From the IMG/VR virus record IMGVR_UViG_3300049023_000063, positions 1,175 to 65,174 of that record: a stretch of 64,000 nt of DNA. One strand, 5' to 3'. A program made the translations under genes and the position numbers. Position 1 is the stretch's first letter. The number at the start of each line of letters is the position of its first letter. Source of the DNA: a virus. Taxonomy: Duplodnaviria; Caudoviricetes. Positions 3,371-63,508 of the stretch are shown in pieces. Below the pieces are notes generated by a model. That model searched no databases, was not told where the DNA came from, and saw only the letters and a program-made list of their open reading frames with translations.

Positions 3371-3479
3371 GAGAATACCGGGTGACTAGATCCGGTATTG
3401 GAGACTGGTTGTGATGAATCCATGTGGCGTGCGTTGGAAGCTTGCCGCAAATTACAGACCGTCATCCTTTCGGAATTTC

Positions 3480-3553
3480 TCGATCTGGCAGGACTCGAAC
3501 CTGCGACCTCCGGGTCGCCACTCCCGGCGTTCTATCCACTGAACTACGGCATT
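3480..3553 (-). pseudogene. tRNA-like element with intact D- and T-arms but unpaired acceptor stem and 8-nt non-canonical anticodon loop
   Basis: Minus strand: TA GTTC-AGTGGATA-GAAC G CCGGG-AGTGGCGA-CCCGG AGGTC GCAGG-TTCGAGT-CCTGC. Acceptor strands AATGCCG/CAGATCG pair at only 2 of 7 positions. No CCA end. Confidence 0.7.
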
Positions 3554-3712
3554 ATGCTGCGCAACTTAGCGCGTCACCACACAGAGCCACGCTGCCGCCA
3601 AGTCCAATGCGGGAACAGATGCGACAAGATGGCTGTGTGTGGCGCCTCGTTTCGTGAGGCAACGGCAGGCTTGCTACTCCAGCGTCCTGGAGCGCGTTGG
3701 TCCGCACCTAAT

Positions 3713-3943
3713 TTAGGTTGTTGGCCTTACGCCAAAATATGTTCCAACGAATGCGCCGAGTATCGCAGGGATCAGCGCATAGTTGTCGTTCACGATACTG
3801 ATCGTGGCCAACGCCTGCATTCCATATAGGAATCCGGCCCAACTCGCGGCGCGGAGCGGGGCGCCATCCTTCACGCTGCCGATGTAGCGCGCCCATGCAA
3901 AGTCAACGATAAATAGCGCTACGAAGATGCCAAGGTAGATCAT
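3713..3943 (-). CDS. Small membrane protein (76 aa)
   Basis: Three hydrophobic segments; lies in the late transcript after tR'. Confidence 0.55.
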   Translation of the reverse strand: MIYLGIFVALFIVDFAWARYIGSVKDGAPLRAASWAGFLYGMQALATISIVNDNYALIPAILGAFVGTYFGVRPTT

Positions 3944-3955
3944 TCACTGCTGCCG

Positions 3956-4111
3956 CTAGTCATCGTGGTTGTATGGCTTCGAATCGGGCACGAGCTGCCA
4001 GCCTAGCTCGCGACGCGCCTCATCCGGCGTCGGCGGCGGGTCTTTCGATTCGTGGCGCTTGTAAAGGTATTCGCGGAGCTGCTGTTTAGTAGGACGCTTC
4101 ACTTCAGTCAT
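3956..4111 (-). CDS. 51-aa microprotein with PTK-x-Q...PPP-x-P...RR-x-LGW motif
   Basis: Manual translation MTEVKRPTKQQLREYLYKRHESKDPPPTPDEARRELGWQLVPDSKPYNHDD; paralog at 24120..24260. Confidence 0.7.
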   Translation of the reverse strand: MTEVKRPTKQQLREYLYKRHESKDPPPTPDEARRELGWQLVPDSKPYNHDD

Positions 4112-9365: not shown

Positions 9366-10211
9366 TCAGTCGAAGGTGATTTCACCGGTTTCAGGGACTA
9401 CGGTCCCACGCTGTGCCAGGTTCGCCGCAGCAGCGGCCTCTGTGCCGGAGTGATCAACGTTCCCGATTTGGAACTTGCTGCTGCCCGTCGCGTTTTGCGT
9501 TGTGCCGCCCTTCTCGTTGCGCACCCAGTTGCGCCAGACAGCAGACCAGTTGGACTTGCGCCCCTTCGCGCCAGGCTGGGCCGTCCAGTAGTCGTAGAAC
9601 CGCTGAGCAACCTCGGAAGGCCTGAGGTCAGGACGTTCGGTTTTGCAGAAAAGCGTGTCTTCGGCTGTCGGGTGCCAGTCGTCGGGCAAGCGGGAACCGC
9701 GCGCCTCTACACTCTGCTTAGCCACTGGCTTTTGCTTTATCTGGGTTTCTTTCTCTTCTTCTCTACTCTCCTCTTCTCTAGGCGTTTTTTGGTGTGACAT
9801 GGTGTGACATGTTGTGACAGTGGATTCAGGTGGCGTGACTTCACCTGCCGTGGCTTCGCGTGCGCGCTGTTGGCGCTTACGTTCTGCCGCAGTAACATCT
9901 TCACGCTCGCGCTTGGGCTGGCGCTTTTCCCAGGAAACTACGTATCCAGCGGCTATGAGCTTGTTCGACTCCATCGCCTTCATAATCTCGGCGGTGCGCT
10001 CGTCTGGAAAGTTGAAAAGACAATCGAGAGCTTCGGCATTGATTTCACCGAATTTGCCGCGCTCCCCTGCGGCACTGGCTTGTTCCAGCAGGTAAGCCCA
10101 CACAGCCACCACATCCGATAGGCTTGCACCTGATCGCCTGGCGACAGGGAGGAACTTAGGGTCGGTCACGCTGCCGTGGTGCCAGCGAAACCAGTCTATG
10201 CCGTTGCTCAT
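9366..10211 (-). CDS. Phage replication initiator (lambda O-analogue)
   Basis: N-terminal WFRWHHG..DPK, internal iterons and EESREE linker, C-terminal FYDYW...W.AVWRNW domain; upstream of the loader. Confidence 0.85.
   Translation of the reverse strand: MSNGIDWFRWHHGSVTDPKFLPVARRSGASLSDVVAVWAYLLEQASAAGERGKFGEINAEALDCLFNFPDERTAEIMKAMESNKLIAAGYVVSWEKRQPKREREDVTAAERKRQQRAREATAGEVTPPESTVTTCHTMSHQKTPREEESREEEKETQIKQKPVAKQSVEARGSRLPDDWHPTAEDTLFCKTERPDLRPSEVAQRFYDYWTAQPGAKGRKSNWSAVWRNWVRNEKGGTTQNATGSSKFQIGNVDHSGTEAAAAANLAQRGTVVPETGEITFD
9791..9820. repeat. Putative origin iterons, 3 x 10 bp
   Basis: GGTGTGACAT GGTGTGACAT GTTGTGACAG inside the initiator gene, next to a pyrimidine tract. Confidence 0.65.
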
Positions 10212-50587: not shown

Positions 50588-51229
50588 TTAGCTCGCGTAT
50601 ACAGTCGGCCTGCCGAACATGGTCAGGGTTGCCTGAGTCACCACCTTGTCTTGCGCGTTACCAGTTGGCAGCAACGTGCAGCCAACGTAGCTGTTGAACA
50701 GGACTTTTTGACCGCCAGCGAAAGTGATCCTGATGCTTCGCTGTGCCTGGTTATCCGATGCAGCCTTCAGTGCAACAAGGGCGGTATCGGATGGGTCCCA
50801 CAAGTTCTCGAAGGTGTAGACGCCTGCAGCAGCGGCCCCTGGAACTTGCTTCTTCACGTTGTCGTGAATGGTGGTCACGTCGATGAAGTCAAAGTCACCG
50901 CCAGATGCCTGCAAACCGCTTGCGGTGGACATAGTCGTGCCGAACGTAATCGCTTCGGCGGTGCCGGAGCTGAACGTGTCGTATGCCGTGGTGTTCTCGC
51001 CTTCGAGTTCGAACGTGTCAGTGGTCTTGTTCGCTACACGGAAGATGCGCGAATCGACTTGGTACATGCCCTGAACGGTCAGCTTCACATAGTCGCCGTT
51101 GTTCAGGCCGTGCGCGGTTGCGGTAACCACGCCTGGGTTTGCCTTGGTGATCGCCGAGATCGTGTCGGCAGCGGCCAGGGCGGATTGAATGGCGACTTGA
51201 ACGCCACTCCATTTAACTACGGTAGTCAT
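50588..51229 (-). CDS. Major tail tube protein
   Basis: Positioned before the chaperones; GGDFDFIDVTTIHD...K.VPG motif; hairpin downstream. Confidence 0.85.
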   Translation of the reverse strand: MTTVVKWSGVQVAIQSALAAADTISAITKANPGVVTATAHGLNNGDYVKLTVQGMYQVDSRIFRVANKTTDTFELEGENTTAYDTFSSGTAEAITFGTTMSTASGLQASGGDFDFIDVTTIHDNVKKQVPGAAAAGVYTFENLWDPSDTALVALKAASDNQAQRSIRITFAGGQKVLFNSYVGCTLLPTGNAQDKVVTQATLTMFGRPTVYAS

Positions 51230-51826: not shown

Positions 51827-52382
51827 TCAATTCTTTCTGTGCTTTTGCGATCCGCGCTTCGATACGCTTGTTGAACGCCGCAATCGCCTGATCCTGCTTG
51901 GTCTGGAATGCGCGGCGCAGGTATGCAACAGGTGGAACAAACTTCGCTCCACCAGCCTTCAATCGTGATCGCTGCAGTTCTCGGCTTCGGTTGCCGCCCT
52001 TGAGTTTCCCACCAGGACCGCGTACCAGGTGACCTTCTTCCACGAACCGCCAATAAAACGCGCTGGCGGTTGGCTTCTTGGCTCCCTTGTTACCGGTACG
52101 GCCAGCCACAACGATTGCTTCCATACCTGGACGCGATTTATTTTTAGACCTGGTTGCGTAGATGGATTTCTTCAATGCGCCCGAAACGCGATCCTTGCGT
52201 GCCTTCCGCAACACCGGAGCAAACTCCCGGGCGGCATTCCTGAAAACAATACCAGCGGCCAATGCCCCAGCACGCACAATCTTGCGCTGCATATCCGAAC
52301 CAAGCGCCCGCAGGCGTGCCGAGAATTCCGGCAAACCAACCATCTTAGCTGTAACGGAATCAGGCATCTGCAGGAGGATCAA
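51816..52382 (-). CDS. HK97 gp10-like tail completion protein
   Basis: GL.E....L..L...SGALKKSI...FYWRFVEEG...YLRRAF. Confidence 0.85.
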   Translation of the reverse strand: MILLQMPDSVTAKMVGLPEFSARLRALGSDMQRKIVRAGALAAGIVFRNAAREFAPVLRKARKDRVSGALKKSIYATRSKNKSRPGMEAIVVAGRTGNKGAKKPTASAFYWRFVEEGHLVRGPGGKLKGGNRSRELQRSRLKAGGAKFVPPVAYLRRAFQTKQDQAIAAFNKRIEARIAKAQKELNER

Positions 52383-52752
52383 TCTTGGTCGAGTAGCTCG
52401 AGCACATCATCTCGATGCGGTCTTTCGGGCCACCGATTTCGGCAGGACCGGAGCGAATTTCGAACGTCTGGTCGATGTCGCCGTAGACCGTGATGCGCAT
52501 CGTTGCGTCAATGTCCGTGCGGTAGCGCATACGAATGCGCGTCATACCCTCGCCCAACGCCACGGCGCCATCAACCTTCTCAGCGCGCGATGGAAGTACG
52601 TCTTGAACCTCTGCCCACCAGCGCTCAGGAAGCACCGGGCTACCTGGCAAGGCCACCAACGGCACCCACTCTACCACCTCGCCGCCGCGATTATCCTTCG
52701 AAGTCGATTTGCGCAGCACCGAGATTTGACGGTTGAATCGGCTAGGCTTCAT
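52360..52752 (-). CDS. Head-closure (head-tail adaptor) protein
   Basis: Start moved to MKPSRFNRQI; WWAEV.D...RIRMRYRTDI..TMRI motif. Confidence 0.85.
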   Translation of the reverse strand: MKPSRFNRQISVLRKSTSKDNRGGEVVEWVPLVALPGSPVLPERWWAEVQDVLPSRAEKVDGAVALGEGMTRIRMRYRTDIDATMRITVYGDIDQTFEIRSGPAEIGGPKDRIEMMCSSYSTKIDPPADA

Positions 52753-53407
52753 AGTTGTCCCGATAAAACGCGTAGGCGCCAATACTCTCCCGACCAGCAT
52801 CAACCTCATGGCCGCTGATTTCCAGCACATGGAAGCGGCGCAATGCCATCCAGCGCAGGAATCCTTGCTCGGTGAAGTAATACAGGTGTTCGCCTGGGCG
52901 ATAATGCTTTGATTCGCGGATGCGAAGCAGATCCTCAAAGATCGGGATGGCCACCAGCACCACGCAACCAGGCTGGATCTGCTCCAGCACTTCGCCTGGG
53001 TTGTCGATATGCTCCAGCGAATCCCAGAAAGTGGCGACATCGAACTTTGCCGGATCGGTGGCAAAAGCCTTGATACTCCGGAGGTATTCGACCGTCTTCG
53101 GGATTACATCAAAGCCGCGCGATTCGAAACCCCAGGCTGCTGCGGCCCTAACGAATGTCCCGCAGCCAGCTCCGATATCCAGAACCGTTGCGCCCTCAGC
53201 GGCATGACGCGCCAGCATCGCGCACCGGCCACGATTCAGCGCTTTTTCGACTTCGGTTCCCTCGTAGGAGGCATACTTATCGAAGTAGTTGTCGTCATAT
53301 GGGACCCTGCCGGCACCCATGTCCGTCTGATAGGCAACCCCCGCACCAAGGCACAGCGATAGGTCGCCATCTTCGACCTTCTCGAAGGCGGCAATATATT
53401 TGTCCAT
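52742..53407 (-). CDS. Class I SAM-dependent methyltransferase
   Basis: Start MDKYIAAF; VLDIGAGCG, FWDSLEHIDNP, HLYYF motifs as in glycan-cluster methyltransferases. Confidence 0.85.
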   Translation of the reverse strand: MDKYIAAFEKVEDGDLSLCLGAGVAYQTDMGAGRVPYDDNYFDKYASYEGTEVEKALNRGRCAMLARHAAEGATVLDIGAGCGTFVRAAAAWGFESRGFDVIPKTVEYLRSIKAFATDPAKFDVATFWDSLEHIDNPGEVLEQIQPGCVVLVAIPIFEDLLRIRESKHYRPGEHLYYFTEQGFLRWMALRRFHVLEISGHEVDAGRESIGAYAFYRDNYEA

Positions 53408-53408
53408 G

Positions 53409-54002
53409 TTAGGCCTTCGTGCGGTCCCAAATGGCCAGCCCGAAGCCGCCATGTTCAACCTGATCACCAGGCAGTGAGTGAACCAGGTTCCATACCGGCT
53501 CTTGGTGCGGCCACACTTCATGGAACAGCACGCGCCCGCAGTGCTTCACCAAATCGAAATCCGTGTAGGTGTCGTTCGCGTGATCACCGTCGATGTAGGC
53601 GAAGTCGAACTTCGTCGCGGCGGCGACCTTCGCCTTTTCGGCGTTATCCGCAATGTCAATGCATTCGATGTTGGTGATTCCAAGCGCTTTGATGATATCG
53701 CGCTTGATGCTGTTGTGGGCGATATCGACTGTCACCACCTTTTTAAAGAAGCGAGACAAGACAATCGAGGTCAACGCATTCCAGGTTCCAACCTCGAAGC
53801 AGGTGTCGCCACTCACACCTGCAGAAACCAGGAAGCGTCCAAGGCCATGGAACACGCTCGACCGGCGAAACACCCCGCCACCGAACTGCTGGTAGACCTT
53901 CAGCAGATCCGGGTCAGTCATGACGATATCCAGGCGATCACCGACCTGTTTTTCCATCTGCATGGACCAGAACATCGGCTTATAAGCTGGATCAACTTTC
54001 AT
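53409..54002 (-). CDS. Class I SAM-dependent methyltransferase (Methyltransf_24-like)
   Basis: FEVGTWNA.TS...FDFAYIDGDH...VLFHE. Confidence 0.8.
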   Translation of the reverse strand: MKVDPAYKPMFWSMQMEKQVGDRLDIVMTDPDLLKVYQQFGGGVFRRSSVFHGLGRFLVSAGVSGDTCFEVGTWNALTSIVLSRFFKKVVTVDIAHNSIKRDIIKALGITNIECIDIADNAEKAKVAAATKFDFAYIDGDHANDTYTDFDLVKHCGRVLFHEVWPHQEPVWNLVHSLPGDQVEHGGFGLAIWDRTKA

Positions 54003-54672
54003 CGGTCGCTTCCATCATCTGCTGCAGTCGTTTATCGAATGTAATGCTTTTTCCGGCGTGGTTCGCTCGGAGCCATGCAGCCTCAAGATCGGGCCGATGG
54101 CAAATTGGATCTTGCGGGTTGCCCGCCTTCCAGGCCTCGTCCACGTTATGGATGCCAGAGGTGAAGAAGTCGAAGCCGGTCAGAAAAACGCTTGCCGGCT
54201 CGCAGGCCAGCACATCGAGAATCGCGGAAAAACCAGTCGTCGGAATATGCTTCCCAAGCAACTCAAAGGACCGAACGAAGTGTTCATCGGTCGGCACAAA
54301 CGTATCGCAAAACCAGAATGAAGCGCGGTTCTTGTAGATGTATTGGAAGTCAATTCCAACTTGTTTTCCGTTCCGCTCGTGCCACTCAGATTTAATCGGC
54401 TTGGAGTTCGGGCATTTGCACATGCAAAGCTTCACGCCGTCGTGAATCAGATCCTCTTTTGTCTTGCGGATCGAGGTGCCGTAAAAAGAATAGTGGATGT
54501 CGGTCCTGAAGCCCTGCGCCGGCCCGGTCTTGTAGTTATTGACGCGTACCACGATGTTGTAACCATCCACCAGCCCAGGAGCGTTATCCAGACTACCTGG
54601 ACCGCTTCCTACGATGGCAATGTGCTGACCTTTCAGCTTTGCCGCAACTTCCTCAAATGTGACGAAACGCAT
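53992..54672 (-). CDS. GT29 sialyltransferase-like glycosyltransferase
   Basis: Sialylmotif-L-like IAIVGSGPG...VDGYNIVVRVNNY...GFRTD and motif-S-like PTTGFSAI...LTGFDFF. Confidence 0.75.
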   Translation of the reverse strand: MRFVTFEEVAAKLKGQHIAIVGSGPGSLDNAPGLVDGYNIVVRVNNYKTGPAQGFRTDIHYSFYGTSIRKTKEDLIHDGVKLCMCKCPNSKPIKSEWHERNGKQVGIDFQYIYKNRASFWFCDTFVPTDEHFVRSFELLGKHIPTTGFSAILDVLACEPASVFLTGFDFFTSGIHNVDEAWKAGNPQDPICHRPDLEAAWLRANHAGKSITFDKRLQQMMEATDES

Positions 54673-55426
54673 TCACAGCCTCGGTGATCTGTTCTTTACT
54701 CCAATCGTCCATCACGAAAGTGGAGGTCGATTTGCTCAACACCTTTTGTGGCGTGATCGTCTTGATGTACGCCTGGTTTGACACGTGGACACGGTGACTC
54801 CACACGGCCAGCATCGGCTTATCGAAGCACTCTGCCAAAGGAATTGCGAAGCTACATTGGGCGATAACCGCATCGCACGAGTAAGCCATATCGAGCAGAT
54901 CGGAAACGCTTGTGCTTCCGGTCATATCTAGTTCGACTGGAATGCCGTACTTCACACCATCCTTGGACCCGATTCCGACAACGAAGCAATCACGCAGCTC
55001 AGCCAAGCATCGCTCGAACGCGGCGCGCTCTGGAAGCAAGTCGTTGGCAAAACCATCCGACCGACCCATCGGCGCGCGCCCACCATGAGCCAAGATAATC
55101 GGACGCCCTGCAGCCAAGCTGCGCAACCGGTCAACCAACCTCAGATTTCTAATCGACCAGGTGAAGCGCATTTCAGCCTGGACCTTCGCGCTCTCGCAAA
55201 TGTCCTGCCATTGTGTCGTACCGGCTTTGGATTTGCCGTTCACATAATGAGCAACCACCTGGACATTATCTCGGCAGAATGGCTTGACCTCCGCACCAGA
55301 TCCAATGAACACATCTGGGTAGTTCGATAACACGGTGATCTGCTCACCGCGCCTGATTAACTCGTCACAAATCGGGCGCACATATAGGCTGTCGCCAAGC
55401 CCGGACCCGCCGCGCAGCCTTTTCAC
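54653..55426 (-). CDS. GT9 (ADP-heptose transferase)-like glycosyltransferase
   Basis: GLGDSL N-terminal motif; DMTGSTSVSDLLDM....DAVIAQCSF..PLA..FDKP.LAVW C-terminal motif. Confidence 0.7.
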   Translation of the reverse strand: MKRLRGGSGLGDSLYVRPICDELIRRGEQITVLSNYPDVFIGSGAEVKPFCRDNVQVVAHYVNGKSKAGTTQWQDICESAKVQAEMRFTWSIRNLRLVDRLRSLAAGRPIILAHGGRAPMGRSDGFANDLLPERAAFERCLAELRDCFVVGIGSKDGVKYGIPVELDMTGSTSVSDLLDMAYSCDAVIAQCSFAIPLAECFDKPMLAVWSHRVHVSNQAYIKTITPQKVLSKSTSTFVMDDWSKEQITEAVNAFRHI

Positions 55427-56127
55427 AGAACATCCTCAATCGCAACTTTTGGAAACGAATCAATTGCAGTGCCAGGGCTTGCATTCAGCACTTCTACACC
55501 AGCCTCCACCAGCGCATTTTCAGCAGCCGACATGGCCTGTTTGAAGTATGAATAGACCGAATTTGGCATCGCTTCTGGGTGCTCGCCAAACCAGTGCGAC
55601 TTACCATCTTGCGATGGTTTTCCATCAAACCCAAGCAGGATGATTCGCTTCGCACCAGCAAGCACCGCGAGATTCAATGCCTGGAAACCTGAGTTGCGGC
55701 CAGTTACCACCGCGCGCGGATCGCTAGACAAGCCATTGCCATGCGCCGTGCCGTGCGCATTACGCAGAACGTGCACCGATTCATCATCAACAACACCAGC
55801 GCCATTCTCAATACTGCACTTCTGGCCCTTGAATTCAGCCCAGCGCTGTTTCACTTCCTCGGCTCCGAAGCCGACCTTCCCGACTCCTTGCTGTTGCCAC
55901 AGATGCCAACGGATGTCTGCCGCATAATGGGTATCCGCCCATGGCGCCAATAGGTAAGCATCGTTGACCGCTATGCACTTTACCGCCTTAGCAGCGTGCG
56001 CCTCACGCACTTTCTCCACCTGATCATGGGTGAGACTTGGACCACCCGCAATAATCACGGCGGTTTCGCCCGACCAGGCCGGCACTACTTCGCTAAACCG
56101 GTCACCTTCAATTCGCTTCAAAATCAT
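55423..56127 (-). CDS. Maf/MptE/CstII-like putative glycosyltransferase
   Basis: IIAGGPSL...IAVND...NSGFQALNLA..AGAKRIILLGFD...HWF motif. Confidence 0.65.
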   Translation of the reverse strand: MILKRIEGDRFSEVVPAWSGETAVIIAGGPSLTHDQVEKVREAHAAKAVKCIAVNDAYLLAPWADTHYAADIRWHLWQQQGVGKVGFGAEEVKQRWAEFKGQKCSIENGAGVVDDESVHVLRNAHGTAHGNGLSSDPRAVVTGRNSGFQALNLAVLAGAKRIILLGFDGKPSQDGKSHWFGEHPEAMPNSVYSYFKQAMSAAENALVEAGVEVLNASPGTAIDSFPKVAIEDVL

Positions 56128-56750
56128 GCGAGTGACAACTCCACGCGCTCACTACGGATCAGGTTTTCAGCGGCCCGCATCAGTCCATCGAATTCCTCGA
56201 CATTCGGGTTGTAGTTAGCCTGCACCCAAAGCTTAATCGCCTGAACGAATCGCTTAGGCGGGATATCGTCTGGATAACCTGCCTTGAAGGTAATCTCCAG
56301 CGTGCTTTGCGACCACTTTGCGCCATTAAGCGCAACAACCTTCGGCCATTTCGAGCTGGCCAGACGGAGCGAATACGAATCCGCATCAATCTCCGTCGAA
56401 ACGCCAGCAGTATCAATCGAGTTGATCGACACGATAGAAAGGACTGGCGACCTGCGCAGCAGAATTTCGCTTTCGTTGGTCGTCATCCACTGCCCGGTAA
56501 TAGCGGTGGTGTTGGTCGAAACCGAATCCGCCGGCAGTGCTGAATCACGTTCGACGGTCAGCCTCCAGGTCTGTTCGATTAGGGCACGACCGGTAAAGCT
56601 CTCGGCCCATTCCCGGCCAGCCGTGATCAGCGCGGAGATTGTGGAATCCATAGCGGTCATCGATTCATACTCGCGCAGATGGGTTTTCATCTGGGCTAAA
56701 GTGACTGGCTCAAATTCCGGTTCGGCGGTGCGCTCCAGTGAAAATCTCAT
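56124..56750 (-). CDS. Head-tail connector (gp6-like)
   Basis: EPVTLAQMKTHLR...LITAGREWAE.FTGRALIEQTW. Confidence 0.88.
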   Translation of the reverse strand: MRFSLERTAEPEFEPVTLAQMKTHLREYESMTAMDSTISALITAGREWAESFTGRALIEQTWRLTVERDSALPADSVSTNTTAITGQWMTTNESEILLRRSPVLSIVSINSIDTAGVSTEIDADSYSLRLASSKWPKVVALNGAKWSQSTLEITFKAGYPDDIPPKRFVQAIKLWVQANYNPNVEEFDGLMRAAENLIRSERVELSLA

Positions 56751-58111
56751 GCCAGCCTCACTGGTTCAACGGAACGTGGCTTGTCATCGCCAGCGTCCTT
56801 GCCATCCCGACCGCGCTTGGCGGCCAAACGCCAGTCTTCCGACGATCCAGGCTTGCCAGCCGGCCCGTCCTTCTGCGCCAGGAACCAAGAGCCGCCAAAG
56901 GTCACTCCATCACCCTTCAGGTATTCATCGCCTTCGCGGAAAATACCCTTGTCCTCGACGCCTGGGACCGTAAATTCTTTGCTGGACTCGCCTCCACTGG
57001 AAAGGCGAACGACCACCGCGCATTTCCGTGGGGCCGGTTCAGTGATCTCAATCGAGGCAATTCCATCAACGATGCATTCCCAACCGCGCATACCGACCGT
57101 CGTTTCAAACGACCTCCAGAAGCCACCAGCATGCTTCGCATATGTGTTGCGTGGATAGGACTTTTCCAAGTCGATGGACGGCAGGATTTCAAGATGTGCC
57201 GCATCGCGGCCCGGGGTTCCATCCTTCGGGAGTTGGATACCCGCCATGGCCTTTGCCACGGCTTCATCGATCATGCTGCGAACTTGCTCGACCGGAACTG
57301 ATTCGCCATCTTTGGCTGGCGGAATTTCGTCAACGGCAGCTTGGACGAGAGCCTTTACGACTTCAGGGTCCGCATCCTTGCCGTCCTTTGGCTGTGGAAG
57401 CTCGCCAATTGCCTTCGCCACTTCTGTGCGCACCAGATCCGCAACTATGACTGGATCTGCATCCGCGCCATCTTTCGGTGCCGGGATTGCTTTTACGGCA
57501 CTCTCAACCAAAGGCGCGATCTCCTCCAAGGTTGGCGCTTTAGGCAAGGACTGCGCCGCCTCTTGGACCAGTGCCTTGATTAACTCAGGATCGGCATCAG
57601 CACCATCCTTTGGTGCCGGAATATCCGCAACCGCAGCCTTCACCAGGTCGGCAAGCATCGGCGCAACCTCTTCGACCGTGATCGACTTCCCATCCTGAGG
57701 CGCAGGAATGGCGGCCACCGCCTCCTGCACCATCTTCGCGATGACTTCCGGGTCAGCGTCCTTCCCATCTGCGGGTTTAGGAAGCGCATCGACTGCGGCC
57801 TTTGCTGCCCGAATCACCGATTCGGGGTCAGCATCCTTCCCATCTACAGGGCGAGGAATCGCGGCCACCTCAGCAGCAACCATCAGCTTAACCTGCTCGA
57901 TATCGACGCTCTTACCATCCGCGCCATCCTTCGGGGCGGGGACAAGTTCAGCAGCAGCCTTGGCAATTTCAGCCAGCTCCGGCAGCTTGATACCGGCCAT
58001 CTTCTGCTCGATGGCATCTAGGCGTACAACAGTGCCAACCACGGCTTTATCGACATAGCCTTTGATTGCGTTGATGACCTTCGCGGCCAATTCGTCAAGA
58101 TTCACAGTCAT
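56747..58111 (-). CDS. Repeat-rich protein with P.P.DG.D.DP + helix units (454 aa)
   Basis: About 9 units of 20-30 aa; C-terminal GVFREG..Y..GDGVT.GGSW motif; coupled to portal and connector. Confidence 0.7.
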   Translation of the reverse strand: MTVNLDELAAKVINAIKGYVDKAVVGTVVRLDAIEQKMAGIKLPELAEIAKAAAELVPAPKDGADGKSVDIEQVKLMVAAEVAAIPRPVDGKDADPESVIRAAKAAVDALPKPADGKDADPEVIAKMVQEAVAAIPAPQDGKSITVEEVAPMLADLVKAAVADIPAPKDGADADPELIKALVQEAAQSLPKAPTLEEIAPLVESAVKAIPAPKDGADADPVIVADLVRTEVAKAIGELPQPKDGKDADPEVVKALVQAAVDEIPPAKDGESVPVEQVRSMIDEAVAKAMAGIQLPKDGTPGRDAAHLEILPSIDLEKSYPRNTYAKHAGGFWRSFETTVGMRGWECIVDGIASIEITEPAPRKCAVVVRLSSGGESSKEFTVPGVEDKGIFREGDEYLKGDGVTFGGSWFLAQKDGPAGKPGSSEDWRLAAKRGRDGKDAGDDKPRSVEPVRLA

Positions 58112-59470: not shown

Positions 59471-59713
59471 TTAGCCTACCTTGCGAAAGTTGGCACGGCG
59501 TGGGCGGGCCGTCATGGCTGGAGGATTGATTGGCTGTGGATTGTCGATCATTGCACGGGTCATGTAGCCTGGAATTGGGTCAGTTTCGACGCGGGCAATC
59601 CAACCCATTGCGACGAACAGCGGCTCATGTTCTGGCTCAACCTCTACCTCATCGCCAATCACAACCTTGCGGCCTGCATATTCGAATTCTGCGGTGCTGA
59701 TGCGTAATGTCAT
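59471..59713 (-). CDS. Small head-associated hypothetical protein (80 aa)
   Basis: Lies between capsid and portal genes with 1-nt spacing to the portal. Confidence 0.55.
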   Translation of the reverse strand: MTLRISTAEFEYAGRKVVIGDEVEVEPEHEPLFVAMGWIARVETDPIPGYMTRAMIDNPQPINPPAMTARPRRANFRKVG

Positions 59714-59763
59714 GTCATTCTCCGAAAGAAAGACCCGCCGAGGCGGGCCTTTCGTTACATCGC

Positions 59764-61164
59764 TTAGGCCACGTAGGCGGCTTCTTTGATGTATGCAACA
59801 GCAGTGGTACGGCGCTTCGCCCAGTTGATGAAGCGGGTCGCACGCAGAGCCAGCGAGTGGGTCTGGAACATCGACACCATGGAGGTTGCGGTGGTGGAAC
59901 CGGTGGAAGTGTTGGTCGGGTTGTCCAGCATTTGGATGCTGGCTTCGCGGCTCACGTCCACGGTAACTTGACCATCGTCGGCCAGGAACACTTCGCGCTG
60001 GTTGACCAGGATGATCATGCAGCCCGAGTTTGGCGAACCTGGGATGTTCGCGGAGTTCGAGGTGATCACTGGGATGCCCAGCAGCTTACCGCCGTTGACG
60101 CCCATTTCTGGGTACAGAGGCAGGCCCAGCGAGTTCAGCATCAGGCTGATCTGCAGGGCTTGGTTCGGCGTCATGATCCAGACGCAATCGCTGATGTCTT
60201 GATCAGCGTCGGCCATCGACTTCAGCAGGGTTGCCAAGTCGGTACGCAGGTTTGCAGCGGCGGTGCCGGTTGCGGTGACTGCGCTAACGCCGTTGGTAAC
60301 CGATGCTGGCGAAACGTTGGCAACGGCAGCGACGTTCGGGTCAACGAACTGAACGTCCAGGAAGGTGCTGATGGTGCCAGCCAGGTCGTCACGCACCAGC
60401 AGTTCTGCCGATGGCGAGGAGCTGCGCGCCAGTTCTTCATCGATTGCCACAAGGCCGGCGCACTTGGCTTGGCCCAGCGATTGGCTGGTGAAGCCAGGCT
60501 TGGACATCGGAATCGGCGCACCCTGGCCAACCCAGTAGCCGCTCGCGGTGCCGTTTTGCTGGCCCATGCGAACGTTGAACGGGATGCGGCGCAGGTTCAG
60601 TTTGCCCAGGATGGTCATCGGACGCAGGTACTCGACAAACTCAGCGGCCAGGTTCTGGTTGTAGACCAGTTCCGAGGCCCAGCCGGAGGTGGTGGTGTCA
60701 CCAGCGGCCACGGCGGCCTTCAGAACTTGCGCGATTTCCGGGGTCTGGTCCATCCAGCGCTTTTCGTTCTGGAAGATCGCCAGCGCGTCGTTCAGGTTGC
60801 CCTTGGCGCGGATCAGGGACATCGCGAAGCGGGCGAACTTCACGCCTTTTTCGATGTTCGGACGCACGGTGATGATGCTCGATGGAGCGCCGGCGCGGTG
60901 CGAAGCTGCGGCCTTGATGGTGTCAGCGGCTTTGGTGTCAACGGCAACGGCTGCGGTCTTGTTGCGTTCTTCGTGCGCTTTCAGGCGGGCGATGTGCTCG
61001 TCCATTTCCTTGATTTCTTCAGCGTGGGTGTCGTACTGCTCCTTTTCGCTGGCGTCCAGGGTGCGCACTTCGTCGCTGGCCTTGGTCATGATCGCGTCTT
61101 GTGCGGCCACGGTTGCGGCACGCTTCTGCTCGAAAGCAGTGATTTGTTCTGCAATGGTAGGCAT
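59764..61164 (-). CDS. HK97-fold major capsid protein with N-terminal delta/scaffold domain
   Basis: Coiled-coil N-terminus; AAVAAGDTT...; LLGIPVITS; SMFQT...RA.RFINW. Confidence 0.95.
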   Translation of the reverse strand: MPTIAEQITAFEQKRAATVAAQDAIMTKASDEVRTLDASEKEQYDTHAEEIKEMDEHIARLKAHEERNKTAAVAVDTKAADTIKAAASHRAGAPSSIITVRPNIEKGVKFARFAMSLIRAKGNLNDALAIFQNEKRWMDQTPEIAQVLKAAVAAGDTTTSGWASELVYNQNLAAEFVEYLRPMTILGKLNLRRIPFNVRMGQQNGTASGYWVGQGAPIPMSKPGFTSQSLGQAKCAGLVAIDEELARSSSPSAELLVRDDLAGTISTFLDVQFVDPNVAAVANVSPASVTNGVSAVTATGTAAANLRTDLATLLKSMADADQDISDCVWIMTPNQALQISLMLNSLGLPLYPEMGVNGGKLLGIPVITSNSANIPGSPNSGCMIILVNQREVFLADDGQVTVDVSREASIQMLDNPTNTSTGSTTATSMVSMFQTHSLALRATRFINWAKRRTTAVAYIKEAAYVA

Positions 61165-61179
61165 GATTCTCTTTCCGGT

Positions 61180-61788
61180 TTATTTGAGATAGACCACACC
61201 AGGACGGCGTGGGGTTTGAGTTCCCGAGACGCCGGGAGAGGATTTGCTGATGTCTTCAGCGGAGAGGCGGACGATTGCGCTCCGGCCTTCAGGGCCAAAC
61301 GCGGCGCGGCGGATTGCTTCGTCTGCGGATTTAATAGATTGGATGGATGCTTCGGCATTTGCTGGCACCGTTACGGCACTCAACTCAAGCCATTCCCACT
61401 CCTGGTACTCGTAGCTATACGTGTCAGCGATGCGGGCATATTTGATGGGGTTGAAACCAATCGACAGGCCGCGCACCAACTTGTATTTGATGGATTGCCA
61501 AGCTTCGTCCAGGCGTTCCTTCAACTTGCCGTCTTCGGGAATGTCTGCGACCTCGCCCTTAATCTCGATACCGGTGCTGGTGACTTTTGCCTCAGTAACC
61601 CAGCCGATAGGCTGACTGTGCATGTGCTGCCAAAGCAGTGGTACAGGCAGTTTGAACTTGGCGCCCTTCGGCAGCACAACGTCGCCCATGCGGTCTGCAC
61701 TGATGGTCGATGCAACACCAGAGAACGTGCGTTTTGCGCCCGGCTCGTCCATCGCTTTGATCTCGATTTGCGCGTAGGCTCGTTTCAT
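61180..61788 (-). CDS. HK97-type prohead protease
   Basis: FSGVAST...DRMGDVV...LLWQH...PIG...GLSIGF...ELSAVTVPAN. Confidence 0.95.
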   Translation of the reverse strand: MKRAYAQIEIKAMDEPGAKRTFSGVASTISADRMGDVVLPKGAKFKLPVPLLWQHMHSQPIGWVTEAKVTSTGIEIKGEVADIPEDGKLKERLDEAWQSIKYKLVRGLSIGFNPIKYARIADTYSYEYQEWEWLELSAVTVPANAEASIQSIKSADEAIRRAAFGPEGRSAIVRLSAEDISKSSPGVSGTQTPRRPGVVYLK

Positions 61789-61849
61789 GCTGTCTCCAGA
61801 AATGCAAAAGGCCCGCGCGGTGGCGGGCCTCGGTTAGGTAATCAATGGG

Positions 61850-63508
61850 TCAAACAAAGAACATCTGGTGTTTCGCACCTGGTGCAGCGGGGTTCAACGA
61901 TAAGAGGGTGACGGCATTGAATAGCGCCATCAGTGGGTCAATCTTGGCCGAGCCGCTTGCTTGCTTAGTGATGATGATCGCGTTTCCGCGCGGTTCGACC
62001 CGTGCGTTACCCACGCTGTACGCCATCAACTCCTGGCCGGCATGTACCAATATCCCCTCTGCCAACTTACGCTCAGTGGTCTTGATCGCGCCGGTCATCT
62101 TCCAGCCTTGCGAAATGCCAACCACCATGTCCTCCGGGATGCTGGCTTCAACCAGGGCATCCAGAATCGCGCCGATCCCGCTTGGGTCAACGCCAATCTT
62201 GTCCAGCTTTCCTGAGTCGTGGATCTGCGCGCAGTAGTCAGCGACCTCCTGAACGTCCTCGCCAATGTGGCGCACGAGCGTCAAGTCACCCTGCTTTGCA
62301 AAATCCTGGAATCTCGGCGCTTCGGTTTTGCGGCGCTCCAGCACGGATGGATGCGCCCAGGCGTGCCCCCATGCCAACCATTTGCGCGTGGTCTTGCAGC
62401 GCCCAACTACGGCGAAGCCAAGCAAGTCATCCAGGCCGCCGCCGTCGATGCCAACATCAACGACTTCACATCGTTCGAGCAATTCTTCCAATGAGAAGGC
62501 GGGAATTGCCGCAGCTTCCCAGAAATCCGCGCCGGCCCACCGGTCGGAGCGCAGAGCCAAGCCGATTTCGACGTTGAGGAACTTGGCCAGGAAGCCGCGC
62601 AATTCTTCTTCGCCGGCGCTTTGTGCTTTCGCCAGCTCACGTTCCAGGTATTCCGAATCCACCGAGTACCCGTAGTTCGGGTTCACCATGTGGAAGTTCT
62701 CAGGCTTCAGGTGCTCCTTCGCCTTGATCATGTCGTCCGGGAATTCGTAGATCACCGGCACAAAGCGTGGGTCAACTAACTTCCCATCGCGCACATCGCG
62801 AGCGTACTGGAGCTTCTGCTTGAACACGCCGGCAGGCGGCTCGTTTGACTGGGTGGTCAGGTAAATGACAAAGCCCTCGGGCCTGGACGCCAGGCCACCG
62901 GTTGCCTCACGCAACATGTCGCTTGCGTTGGCCTGCTTGCCAAACAACCAGAGTTCGTCAATCAGCGTCCCGACACCCTTCTTGCCGCCTACCGTGTTGG
63001 CGTCTGCCGCGATCACCTTCAGGTTTGCATTACTCTCGCGGTGCGTAATCTGCTTGATGTGGGACTGCACGTGCAGGAGCGCTTCGAGATCTTCATCGCG
63101 CGCCACCATGTCCCAACTCGGCTTGAAGCTGTTGTTTGCCACCTCCAGCGTCGGAGCCAGGATCGCGAATTCAGCCGACTGCCGCCAATTCAGGATCAAC
63201 GCGGTCATCATGATGCCCGCCGCGATGGTGGACTTCGAGTTCTTCTTCGGCAGGCAGACGAACCATTCTGTAATCAGCCGGCGACCGGAATCCGGGTCGT
63301 ATGCACCGAAGATCGACGCTACCAGGTCAAAGACCCACTCCGCGCAAGCCTCACCAAAAGTCGGGCTGCCAGGTGCATCGACAATCTTCAACTGCTTGAA
63401 AACGTGAAGTGCCGCTTCGGCCTGTTCCGGGAATATCGGCGGCGGGATGATGCTTCGCCCTTCCTTCAGCCTATCCGCCCAATCTGGACAAGCTGTGGAC
63501 CATTCCAT
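61850..63508 (-). CDS. Terminase large subunit
   Basis: Walker A PKKNSKS, IDELW Walker B, GIDGGGLDDL and KIDP..A nuclease motifs. Confidence 0.97.
   Translation of the reverse strand: MEWSTACPDWADRLKEGRSIIPPPIFPEQAEAALHVFKQLKIVDAPGSPTFGEACAEWVFDLVASIFGAYDPDSGRRLITEWFVCLPKKNSKSTIAAGIMMTALILNWRQSAEFAILAPTLEVANNSFKPSWDMVARDEDLEALLHVQSHIKQITHRESNANLKVIAADANTVGGKKGVGTLIDELWLFGKQANASDMLREATGGLASRPEGFVIYLTTQSNEPPAGVFKQKLQYARDVRDGKLVDPRFVPVIYEFPDDMIKAKEHLKPENFHMVNPNYGYSVDSEYLERELAKAQSAGEEELRGFLAKFLNVEIGLALRSDRWAGADFWEAAAIPAFSLEELLERCEVVDVGIDGGGLDDLLGFAVVGRCKTTRKWLAWGHAWAHPSVLERRKTEAPRFQDFAKQGDLTLVRHIGEDVQEVADYCAQIHDSGKLDKIGVDPSGIGAILDALVEASIPEDMVVGISQGWKMTGAIKTTERKLAEGILVHAGQELMAYSVGNARVEPRGNAIIITKQASGSAKIDPLMALFNAVTLLSLNPAAPGAKHQMFFV

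Follow-up and report, generated by a model that had tools for sequence, protein, structure and literature searches.

We analysed a 64,000-nucleotide (nt) stretch of viral DNA, called the window below (positions 1,175 to 65,174 of the IMG/VR record IMGVR_UViG_3300049023_000063), which is nearly the whole of a 65,174-base virus genome that CheckV rates as complete and which belongs to a temperate tailed phage with a betaproteobacterial host. Five consecutive genes of this window, designated A to E (52742-56127), lie between two head-tail joining genes and very probably form a module that builds a glycan, methylates it and is expressed together with the structural genes. That the acceptor is a virion protein is an evenly balanced proposition, and the full proposal, a late cytoplasmic module that places a methylated oligosaccharide on one or more structural proteins of the virion, merits belief and doubt in about equal measure. 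Catalytic activity, donor identity and above all the acceptor are what we infer here. According to this proposal, the five genes would be translated late and in the cytoplasm, as part of the virion structural operon. A and C, which have a sialyltransferase fold, and B, a GT9-like enzyme of the GT-B glycosyltransferase fold, would assemble a short oligosaccharide from host sugar nucleotides, by fold analogy a cytidine monophosphate (CMP)-activated ulosonic acid (3-deoxy-D-manno-octulosonic acid, Kdo, or a nonulosonic acid) and an adenosine diphosphate (ADP)- or other nucleoside diphosphate-sugar. D and E would O-methylate the product, and one or more co-produced virion structural proteins would receive it, giving a glycosylated particle as in some mycobacteriophages.

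All genes of the cassette and of the operon around it are on the minus strand. The cassette is preceded by a head-tail connector (a gp6-like adaptor of 208 aa, 56124..56750; PF05135 21.7 bits, TIGR02215 6.7e-19, phrog_442 7e-17) and followed by a head-closure or head completion protein (130 aa, 52360..52752; PF05521 3.5e-15, phrog_25 4.5e-13). The boundaries and couplings of the open reading frames (ORFs) agree exactly with those of the original prediction, which had been made from the DNA letters: from the connector to the head-closure gene, successive ORFs overlap by 4, 4, 20 and 11 nt, are then separated by a 1-nt gap and overlap again by 11 nt. Two of these junctions were read base by base. 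Between A and B, the letters GTGA are common to the stop codon of A and the GTG start codon of B, with GAGGA upstream; between D and E, the stop codon TAA (53411-53409) is followed by a single c and then by the ATG at 53407, with GAAGG upstream. The starts chosen for B and E match the first aligned residues of their homologues, and the number of their homologue clusters, from hundreds to over 1,400, shows that the five ORFs are real genes. The connector and the head-closure gene had been said to be normally adjacent, which is borne out in BP-4795, FSL SP-016 and PAJU2, three phages with the same unusual head module (large terminase, protease and major capsid protein, portal and a homologue of the 454-aa protein described below); in RHph_X2_26, which also has this module, one small ORF lies between the two. 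Compared with this layout, in which the two joining genes are neighbours, the five genes represent an insertion.

The most informative of the five proteins is C (226 aa, 53992..54672), which on the strength of its structural model is a GT29/GT42-type sialyltransferase-fold enzyme, its activity being predicted. An AlphaFold2 model of C (predicted local distance difference test, pLDDT, 92.6) matched CstII, ST3Gal-I and ST6GalNAc2 in Foldseek at about 2e-6. In VIA-align, the best Z scores were obtained with ST3Gal-I (13.7; root-mean-square deviation, rmsd, 2.7 over 177 residues), ST6GalNAc2 (12.9) and ST8SiaIII (12.5), followed by the rest of the fold group, namely the MptE kinase (HPPK, 12.0), Cst-I and CstII (11.5), SteA (about 10) and thiamine pyrophosphokinase (8.1); unrelated folds remained below 4, so that C matches the sialyltransferase fold group only. 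The protein has an L-like motif (IAIVGSGPGSL, residues 18-28), an S-like motif (IPTTGF...LTGFDFF, 143-170), the motif HNVDEAW (175-181) and a VS-type H-x4-E motif (HRPDLE, 192-197), in which G22, P25, T146, G147, F148, G166, F167, D168, H175, H192, P194 and E197 do not vary among 34 members of the family. The alignment of the C profile to motif L of ST3Gal-I is not significant by itself (E 0.22). C has no Pfam match of its own; however, profile-linked relatives pass the 23-bit cut-off of PF00777 (P0258 with 42.7, P0254 with 37.5 and P0335 with 62.4 bits), and some homologues that are 60-68% identical to C carry a precomputed PF00777 annotation; a few of its more than 1,400 homologue clusters have a precomputed GT29 Pfam label. 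The ESM Atlas clusters nearest to C are viral, with GT29 on 57-73% of their members, which we take as a lead only. C thus shares its fold, L/S/VS-type motifs and PF00777-scoring relatives with the animal GT29 enzymes and the Campylobacter GT42 enzymes CstII and Cst-I; unlike GT29, GT42 and Maf enzymes, both A and C are minimal cytoplasmic proteins (226-234 aa) that have no stem, no disulfide pair and none of the flanking domains of Maf.

Gene A (234 aa, 55423..56127) encodes a DUF115/MptE-like protein that, judged from an alignment between the A and C families, is a member of the sialyltransferase-fold superfamily. In this alignment (hhalign) the two families match with 91% probability (E 1e-6) over 153 columns, which span the GxGPS and the NSG..LLGFD..H motifs; in A itself, these regions read VIIAGGPSL (24-32), NSG...LLGFDG (145-169) and SHWFGEH (177-183). 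The histidine motif of A is putatively CstII-like. A matches phrog_4603, labelled 'alpha-2,3-sialyltransferase', at 9e-36. Against Pfam, it matches PF01973 (MptE-like) over residues 11-54 only, at 4e-6 and 27.1 bits, below the gathering cut-off of 34.6, and no other Pfam family is found in A; since this cut-off was missed, A is described here as a fold-superfamily member and filed neither as Maf nor as MptE. The architecture of Maf is not that of A either, which consists of a 234-aa core domain without flanking N- or C-terminal domains. When the A-family profile was compared with the PDB, only non-significant matches were returned, with the sialyltransferases 9c08 and 2x63 at E ~2. A-like genes do occur in GenBank phages, where tblastn found them in 70 records. 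The homologues include P1 PmgO, P7 HdmB, D3 orf7 and PAJU2 gp10 (26-31% identity to A for gp10, orf7 and PmgO); others come from the TvV-S20 record and from jumbo phages that infect Caulobacter, Brevundimonas and Xanthomonas. In P1, pmgO is non-essential (PMC10695390), and no function of PmgO is described in the literature that we found.

The same two proteins raise the question of whether the cassette makes a soluble methylated oligosaccharide or glycoside instead of a protein-linked glycan, or whether A is a pyrophosphokinase-like enzyme and no transferase; the product could then be packaged or serve against host defences. The structural matches of C to the MptE HPPK and to thiamine pyrophosphokinase, and the fact that the sole Pfam match of A is MptE-like, are consistent with this reading. 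On the other hand, the L, S and VS (H-x4-E) motifs are retained in the C family, which has relatives that score as PF00777, and every domain to which C is found fused (described below) belongs to a glycan enzyme (GT2, GT7C, sulfotransferase or methyltransferase). We consider this reading very unlikely.

Gene B (257 aa, GTG start, 54653..55426) encodes, according to its model, a compact GT-B enzyme that is closest to the GT9 heptosyltransferases. The AlphaFold2 model, built on 34 homologues, has a pLDDT of 95, and its Foldseek matches were WaaF (4e-9), the Veillonella GT9 enzyme 3tov, TibC and WaaC. VIA-align gave Z scores of 16.7 for 3tov, 16.5 for WaaF, 15.5 for TibC and 15.0 for WaaC, whereas no other GT-B enzyme family exceeded 11.5. 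The alignments with the GT9 structures covered 225-235 residues; with the heptosyltransferases WaaC, WaaF and TibC, 234-235 of the 257 residues of B were aligned at an rmsd of 3.2-3.7. B has more than 262 homologues of the same length, and an N-terminal GLGD motif (residues 9-12) is invariant across the family. The likeness to WaaC, WaaF and TibC therefore lies in the whole-protein structural match and in this N-terminal G-D motif; B differs from the GT9 enzymes in being ~70-90 residues shorter, in a diverged C-terminal nucleotide-binding motif and in having no match to PF01075. No other Pfam family matches B, its sole NCBIfam match is TIGR04372 (16.5 bits, cut-off 45), and a comparison of the B-family profile with PDB sequences found nothing. 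Since it belongs to no Pfam or NCBIfam family, B is GT9-like in fold and is not filed as GT9, and the use of ADP-heptose by B would be an analogy with these enzymes.

The two last genes are methyltransferase candidates of unequal strength. E (221 aa, ATG at 53407, 52742..53407) is by its sequence a clear class I S-adenosylmethionine (SAM) methyltransferase of the Methyltransf_23 group, with 51.4 bits against PF13489 (cut-off 27), a match to phrog_6564 at 3.6e-44 and, by its profile, one to PDB entry 3cc8 at 5e-6; it is orthologous to PAJU2 gp12 (hhalign 100%, E 1e-44). The case for D (197 aa, 53409..54002) is weaker, its score against PF13578 being 16.8 bits for a cut-off of 26.3. The D-family profile matched the O-methyltransferases 6jcl and 3dul and TrmR (8k1f) in the PDB at E values of 6e-4 to 8e-3, and D has the motifs FEVGT (69-73) and YIDGDH (136-141), which suggest a class I SAM methyltransferase resembling the cation-dependent O-methyltransferases. 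The calls made in the original prediction (A Maf/CstII-like, B GT9-like, C GT29-like, D and E SAM methyltransferases) thus hold at the level of fold or profile, and the check that it had put forward, AlphaFold with Foldseek, returned a GT9-like fold for B and a sialyltransferase fold for C.

D and E resemble small-molecule or sugar O-methyltransferases and not DNA methyltransferases, which bears on a further alternative, the hypermodification of phage DNA with glycosylated and methylated bases as a protection from restriction. We regard this as highly improbable, because the methyltransferases are of the wrong type and because the complete phage record has no thymidylate-synthase- or dCMP-hydroxymethylase-like gene (PF00303). 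The cassette also lies in the structural module and not in the replication module, and we know of no sialyltransferase-fold enzyme that acts on DNA. What speaks for DNA as the target is the GT-B fold of the T4 DNA glucosyltransferases and the existence of other viral glycosyltransferases that hypermodify DNA (Pyle 2024, cited in PMC12619734).

Gene fusions provide the strongest computational argument of this work, since they indicate that the transferases and the methyltransferases act in one carbohydrate pathway. B and C are fused in single ORFs of ~480-500 aa in six representatives and also, as ORFs of 496-500 aa, in two other viral loci (L094:7986-9488 and L096:7986-9476), which were recovered by an alignment-based scan after a single-sequence scan with P0272 had found nothing. 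Profile searches also found C fused to Methyltransf_23, C fused to Methyltransf_24 and Sulfotransfer_2 fused to C, as well as large proteins that combine GT2, GT7C and C-like domains. Some copies of the cassette have extra genes between C and E, and these too encode glycan-tailoring enzymes: a third Methyltransf_23 gene in 11 loci (for example L006:1298-2233) and a carbohydrate-type Sulfotransfer_2 gene (L006:3200-3787). One locus has a NUMOD3 homing endonuclease gene in this place (L028:3829-4506).

To follow the cassette across phages, IMG/VR was scanned with the C family and the best 80 of 106 confirmed stretches were taken as loci. C was matched in 80 of them, B in 78, A and E in 73 each and D in 65; all five genes were present in 50 of the 80, many of the contigs being partial. 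In 77 of these 80 uncultured viral contigs the genes lie on a single strand and follow the order A-B-C-(extras)-D-E, and head genes lie upstream of A in 46 of the 50 loci with enough upstream DNA. Within these contigs C is the gene with the strongest conservation: its median identity was 57%, a figure inflated because C was the search bait, compared with 49% for the portal and 44% for the major capsid protein. Among 185,579 species genomes only 7 loci were found, all inside phage structural modules of Betaproteobacteria/Burkholderiales-type records or of binned phage contigs; they include a sister prophage in Pseudoduganella sp. UC29_106 (L090) with the same gene order and a C that is 83% identical. 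The cassette had no blastn match in GenBank phages, and tblastn with B and C against 50,697 GenBank phage records found no match, which indicates that these two families are absent from cultured phages at this sensitivity.

Partial counterparts occur in other phages. PAJU2, like D3 a Pseudomonas phage of the Detrevirus group, shares the head module and has gp10 (A-like), gp11 and gp12 (the orthologue of E) one gene further downstream, after head closure; gp11 has the N-terminal RG..GLGD..R motif of B, with a weak overall match (E 0.017). In contrast to the window, PAJU2, D3, P1 and P7 are without C and D, and their proteins are functionally uncharacterised. The siphophage record TvV-S20 ('Tetraselmis viridis virus S20') repeats the location and the theme: a methyltransferase gene and two A-like genes are found between the major capsid protein and head closure, but B and C are replaced by a GT2 enzyme and an enzyme of GT-D fold (PF08759, 3e-25). 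This structural-module glycan cassette (L002, 6001-11869), likewise uncharacterised, stands in a record that is filed under the name of an algal host.

Several features of the locus indicate that the cassette is expressed with the structural genes. Between 50000 and 64000, 5 promoter-like sites were found, against 6.8 in shuffled sequence, which is no enrichment, and no terminator bracketing the cassette was found on the coding strand. Overlap coupling together with no internal promoter signal suggests that the glycosyltransferase genes are co-transcribed with the structural genes, the arrangement that characterises virion glycosylation of the mycobacteriophage type; as to position, the same is true of 77 of 80 related loci. 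The five proteins look soluble: none has a transmembrane segment (the highest Kyte-Doolittle value is 1.44 in a 19-residue window, for a threshold of 1.6) or a signal-peptide-like N-terminus, in agreement with the first reading of the locus. A moron or lysogenic-conversion role was considered and rejected, because the cassette lacks both a promoter and a terminator of its own and none of its products is a membrane protein.

The main rival of virion glycosylation is a modification of the host envelope. The enzymes would then act at the cytoplasmic face of the inner membrane, where they would lengthen or cap lipid A-core, lipooligosaccharide or another lipid-linked glycan during its synthesis, so that the phage receptor would be altered and superinfection excluded, or progeny kept off cell debris. 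Several observations fit this scenario: B is structurally closest to the lipopolysaccharide (LPS) heptosyltransferases WaaF and WaaC, the phage is temperate, and phages are well known to convert the surface of their hosts. Enzymes of the LPS core are soluble or peripheral and have no membrane helices, and none was found in A to E. In addition, one language-model look-alike of A is a cluster in which the MptE-like and WaaZ KdoIII-transferase families are represented, which counts as a lead only. When the comparison with E. coli WaaZ was made directly (hhalign), it was weak for the A family (13.5% probability and E 0.002, from 83 columns that cover the core motif common to both) and null for the C family (0.3% probability). 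Classical conversion modules moreover use integral membrane proteins, and the close relatives of the cassette are found only inside phage structural modules. Because it is coupled within a late operon and has no promoter or terminator of its own, the cassette should be silent in lysogens, and expression just before lysis would leave little time for remodelling of the outer membrane. On balance, an envelope acceptor seems improbable, if still the most serious of the competing readings.

A protein acceptor outside the virion, for instance host flagellin or pilin or a non-structural phage protein, would block a receptor or alter host physiology at a late stage of infection. This possibility arises because A belongs to the DUF115/MptE-like group, which includes the Maf flagellin glycosyltransferases, and because TibC-type GT9 enzymes modify bacterial surface proteins. 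It is made very doubtful by the architecture of A, whose 234-aa core is without the Maf flanking domains that are expected to bind flagellin, by a late timing that counts against it as it does for LPS, and by conservation in the structural operons of very different phages, which points to a target on the side of the phage.

The sugar donors must come from the host, since the phage carries no sugar-nucleotide genes: as the original prediction had noted for the window, no nucleotide-sugar synthesis gene is present, the four families searched (CTP_transf_3, NeuB, NTP_transferase and Epimerase) being absent from the whole 65-kb phage record. The genome of the sister-prophage host, Pseudoduganella sp. 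UC29_106, encodes KdsB at 1.62 Mb, three GT9 genes and, at C1:7221543-7224602, a second cytidylyltransferase ~2 kb from a NeuB-type nonulosonic acid synthase gene. From the three GT9 genes, ADP-heptose should be available; together with KdsB and the NeuB-linked cytidylyltransferase, this makes CMP-Kdo, CMP-nonulosonate and ADP-heptose all plausible donors. A CMP-nonulosonate donor is probably available in UC29_106, judging by these genes, and the idea of Kdo and heptose donors, as for an LPS-core-like glycan, is plausible by analogy.

As for the acceptor, the arguments for a virion protein are that expression is locked to that of the structural genes, that the cassette occurs only in phage structural modules, that mycobacteriophages offer a precedent with the glycans on their capsid and tail-tube subunits, that TibC, which heptosylates a protein in the cytoplasm, is among the top structural matches of B, and that P1 pmgO is dispensable, as would be the case for an accessory modifier. 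The major capsid protein offers one possible acceptor loop, proposed from sequence comparison: an insertion of 7-10 residues at positions 370-381 (NSANIPGSPNSG, 60022-60057, minus strand), which includes a conserved Ser-Pro, occurs in 14 of 17 capsids of cassette-bearing phages and in 0 of 7 cassette-free relatives, with an intermediate, 5-residue version in PAJU2, where the cassette is reduced. The insertion is a lead only, because these sequences are not phylogenetically independent.

A number of findings weigh against virion glycosylation or limit what can be claimed for it. The sialyltransferase fold is common to the MptE pyrophosphokinase (Z 12.0, next to 13.7 for ST3Gal-I) and to SteA, so that the fold alone is no proof of transferase activity, least of all for A, and A, B, C and D each score below every Pfam gathering cut-off. 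The usual substrate of GT9 and Kdo-type enzymes is lipid A-core, which makes LPS a no less natural acceptor in chemical terms. A Ser/Thr-rich loop of the major capsid protein (415-428) was tried as a cassette-specific acceptor signature and rejected, since it is also present in capsid proteins of cassette-free phages. The position of the cassette, finally, varies. In one viral locus (L094), an A-like gene (3448-4044), the B+C fusion and an E-like gene (9490-10137) are away from the neck: the tape measure and large tail genes precede them and the terminase follows. PAJU2 has its reduced set beyond head closure, and D3-like phages have theirs divided, with parts on either side of the neck genes. 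Among the relatives, for which the original prediction had proposed a survey, most of the IMG/VR loci are colinear and have head genes upstream, and L094, PAJU2 and the D3-like phages depart from the neck position, so that a neck link is not general. Since position differs between lineages, it argues only for late co-expression, and the association of the cassette is with the late structural operon, not with the neck.

The remainder of the operon is that of a tailed phage with an HK97-type head, as identified by family and profile searches: small terminase (63988-63509), large terminase (63508-61850), S78 prohead protease (61788-61180), HK97-type major capsid protein (61164-59764), portal (59469-58108) and, between portal and connector, the 454-aa repeat protein (56747-58111); beyond head closure follow, in late operon order, gp10-like, tail completion, tail tube and tape measure proteins. 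The 454-aa protein has about 7 copies of a ~25-45-aa repeat that ends in P-x-P-KDG-x-D-A-D-PE, followed by a distinct C-terminal domain. Its PHROG label, 'portal protein' (phrog_1289, 1e-110), probably stems from portal fusions (phrog_2271); homologues are found in cassette-free phages (BP-4795 ORF59, RHph_X2_26 and FSL SP-016), and it could be a head or neck fibre. In the tail tube protein (50588-51229, minus strand), residues 31-89 match the ubiquitin-E1 FCCH model (PF16190, 2e-7) ahead of the Phage_tail_3 domain and may form an extra surface domain. The strongest terminator-like hairpin of the region (61808-61831, minus strand; 9 pairs, of which 7 are G-C, then a T-rich tail) lies within the late operon, between large terminase and prohead protease. 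On the plus strand, opposite the protease and capsid genes, there is a 734-aa open frame (59707-61911) that matches no family and is in all likelihood a shadow ORF.

To our knowledge, mycobacteriophages are as yet the only phages whose own enzymes have been shown to glycosylate the virion, a modification that alters antibody recognition. The likeness of the cassette to the systems of Che8, Corndog and Myrna, as citing papers describe them, is that glycosyltransferase sets encoded by the phage are associated with virion genes and dispensable for growth, and the logic proposed here would likewise be a cytoplasmic modification of structural proteins before assembly. The glycans of mycobacteriophages sit on capsid and tail-tube subunits (Freeman 2023, quoted in PMC12619734). 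The differences are in the host, actinobacteria there and a Gram-negative betaproteobacterium here, and in the enzymes, as two sialyltransferase-fold proteins and one GT9-like protein would point to CMP-ulosonic acid or heptose-type chemistry. The original prediction knew of no such system in a proteobacterial siphophage; likewise, in the literature that we found, no such cassette is described in phages of Gram-negative bacteria, and B and C are without a match in GenBank phages. Should the acceptor be a virion protein, and only then, the novelty would be phage-encoded virion glycosylation with different, largely unnamed enzyme families and in a different host group. The most specific version, in which a large, so far uncultured siphophage group of Betaproteobacteria covers the proteins of its capsid or neck with a glycan that is methylated, sometimes sulfated and similar to the LPS inner core, made from host CMP-ulosonic acid and heptose-type donors by previously unnamed phage-specific GT29-like and GT9-like families, with reduced forms in D3 and PAJU2, is rather unlikely and put forward tentatively; the LPS-core-like glycan on neck proteins, in particular, is suggested by analogy only.

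The question is testable now, since the sister prophage resides in a cultured Pseudoduganella strain and the reduced set is present in D3 and PAJU2. If the proposal is true, two large families would receive a name, B and the viral GT29-like C, which have no Pfam model and no cultured-phage representative, and compact cytoplasmic enzymes would become available for glyco-engineering. The surface of phage particles would also have to be rethought, including how stable they are, how they adsorb and how the immune system or host defences recognise them.

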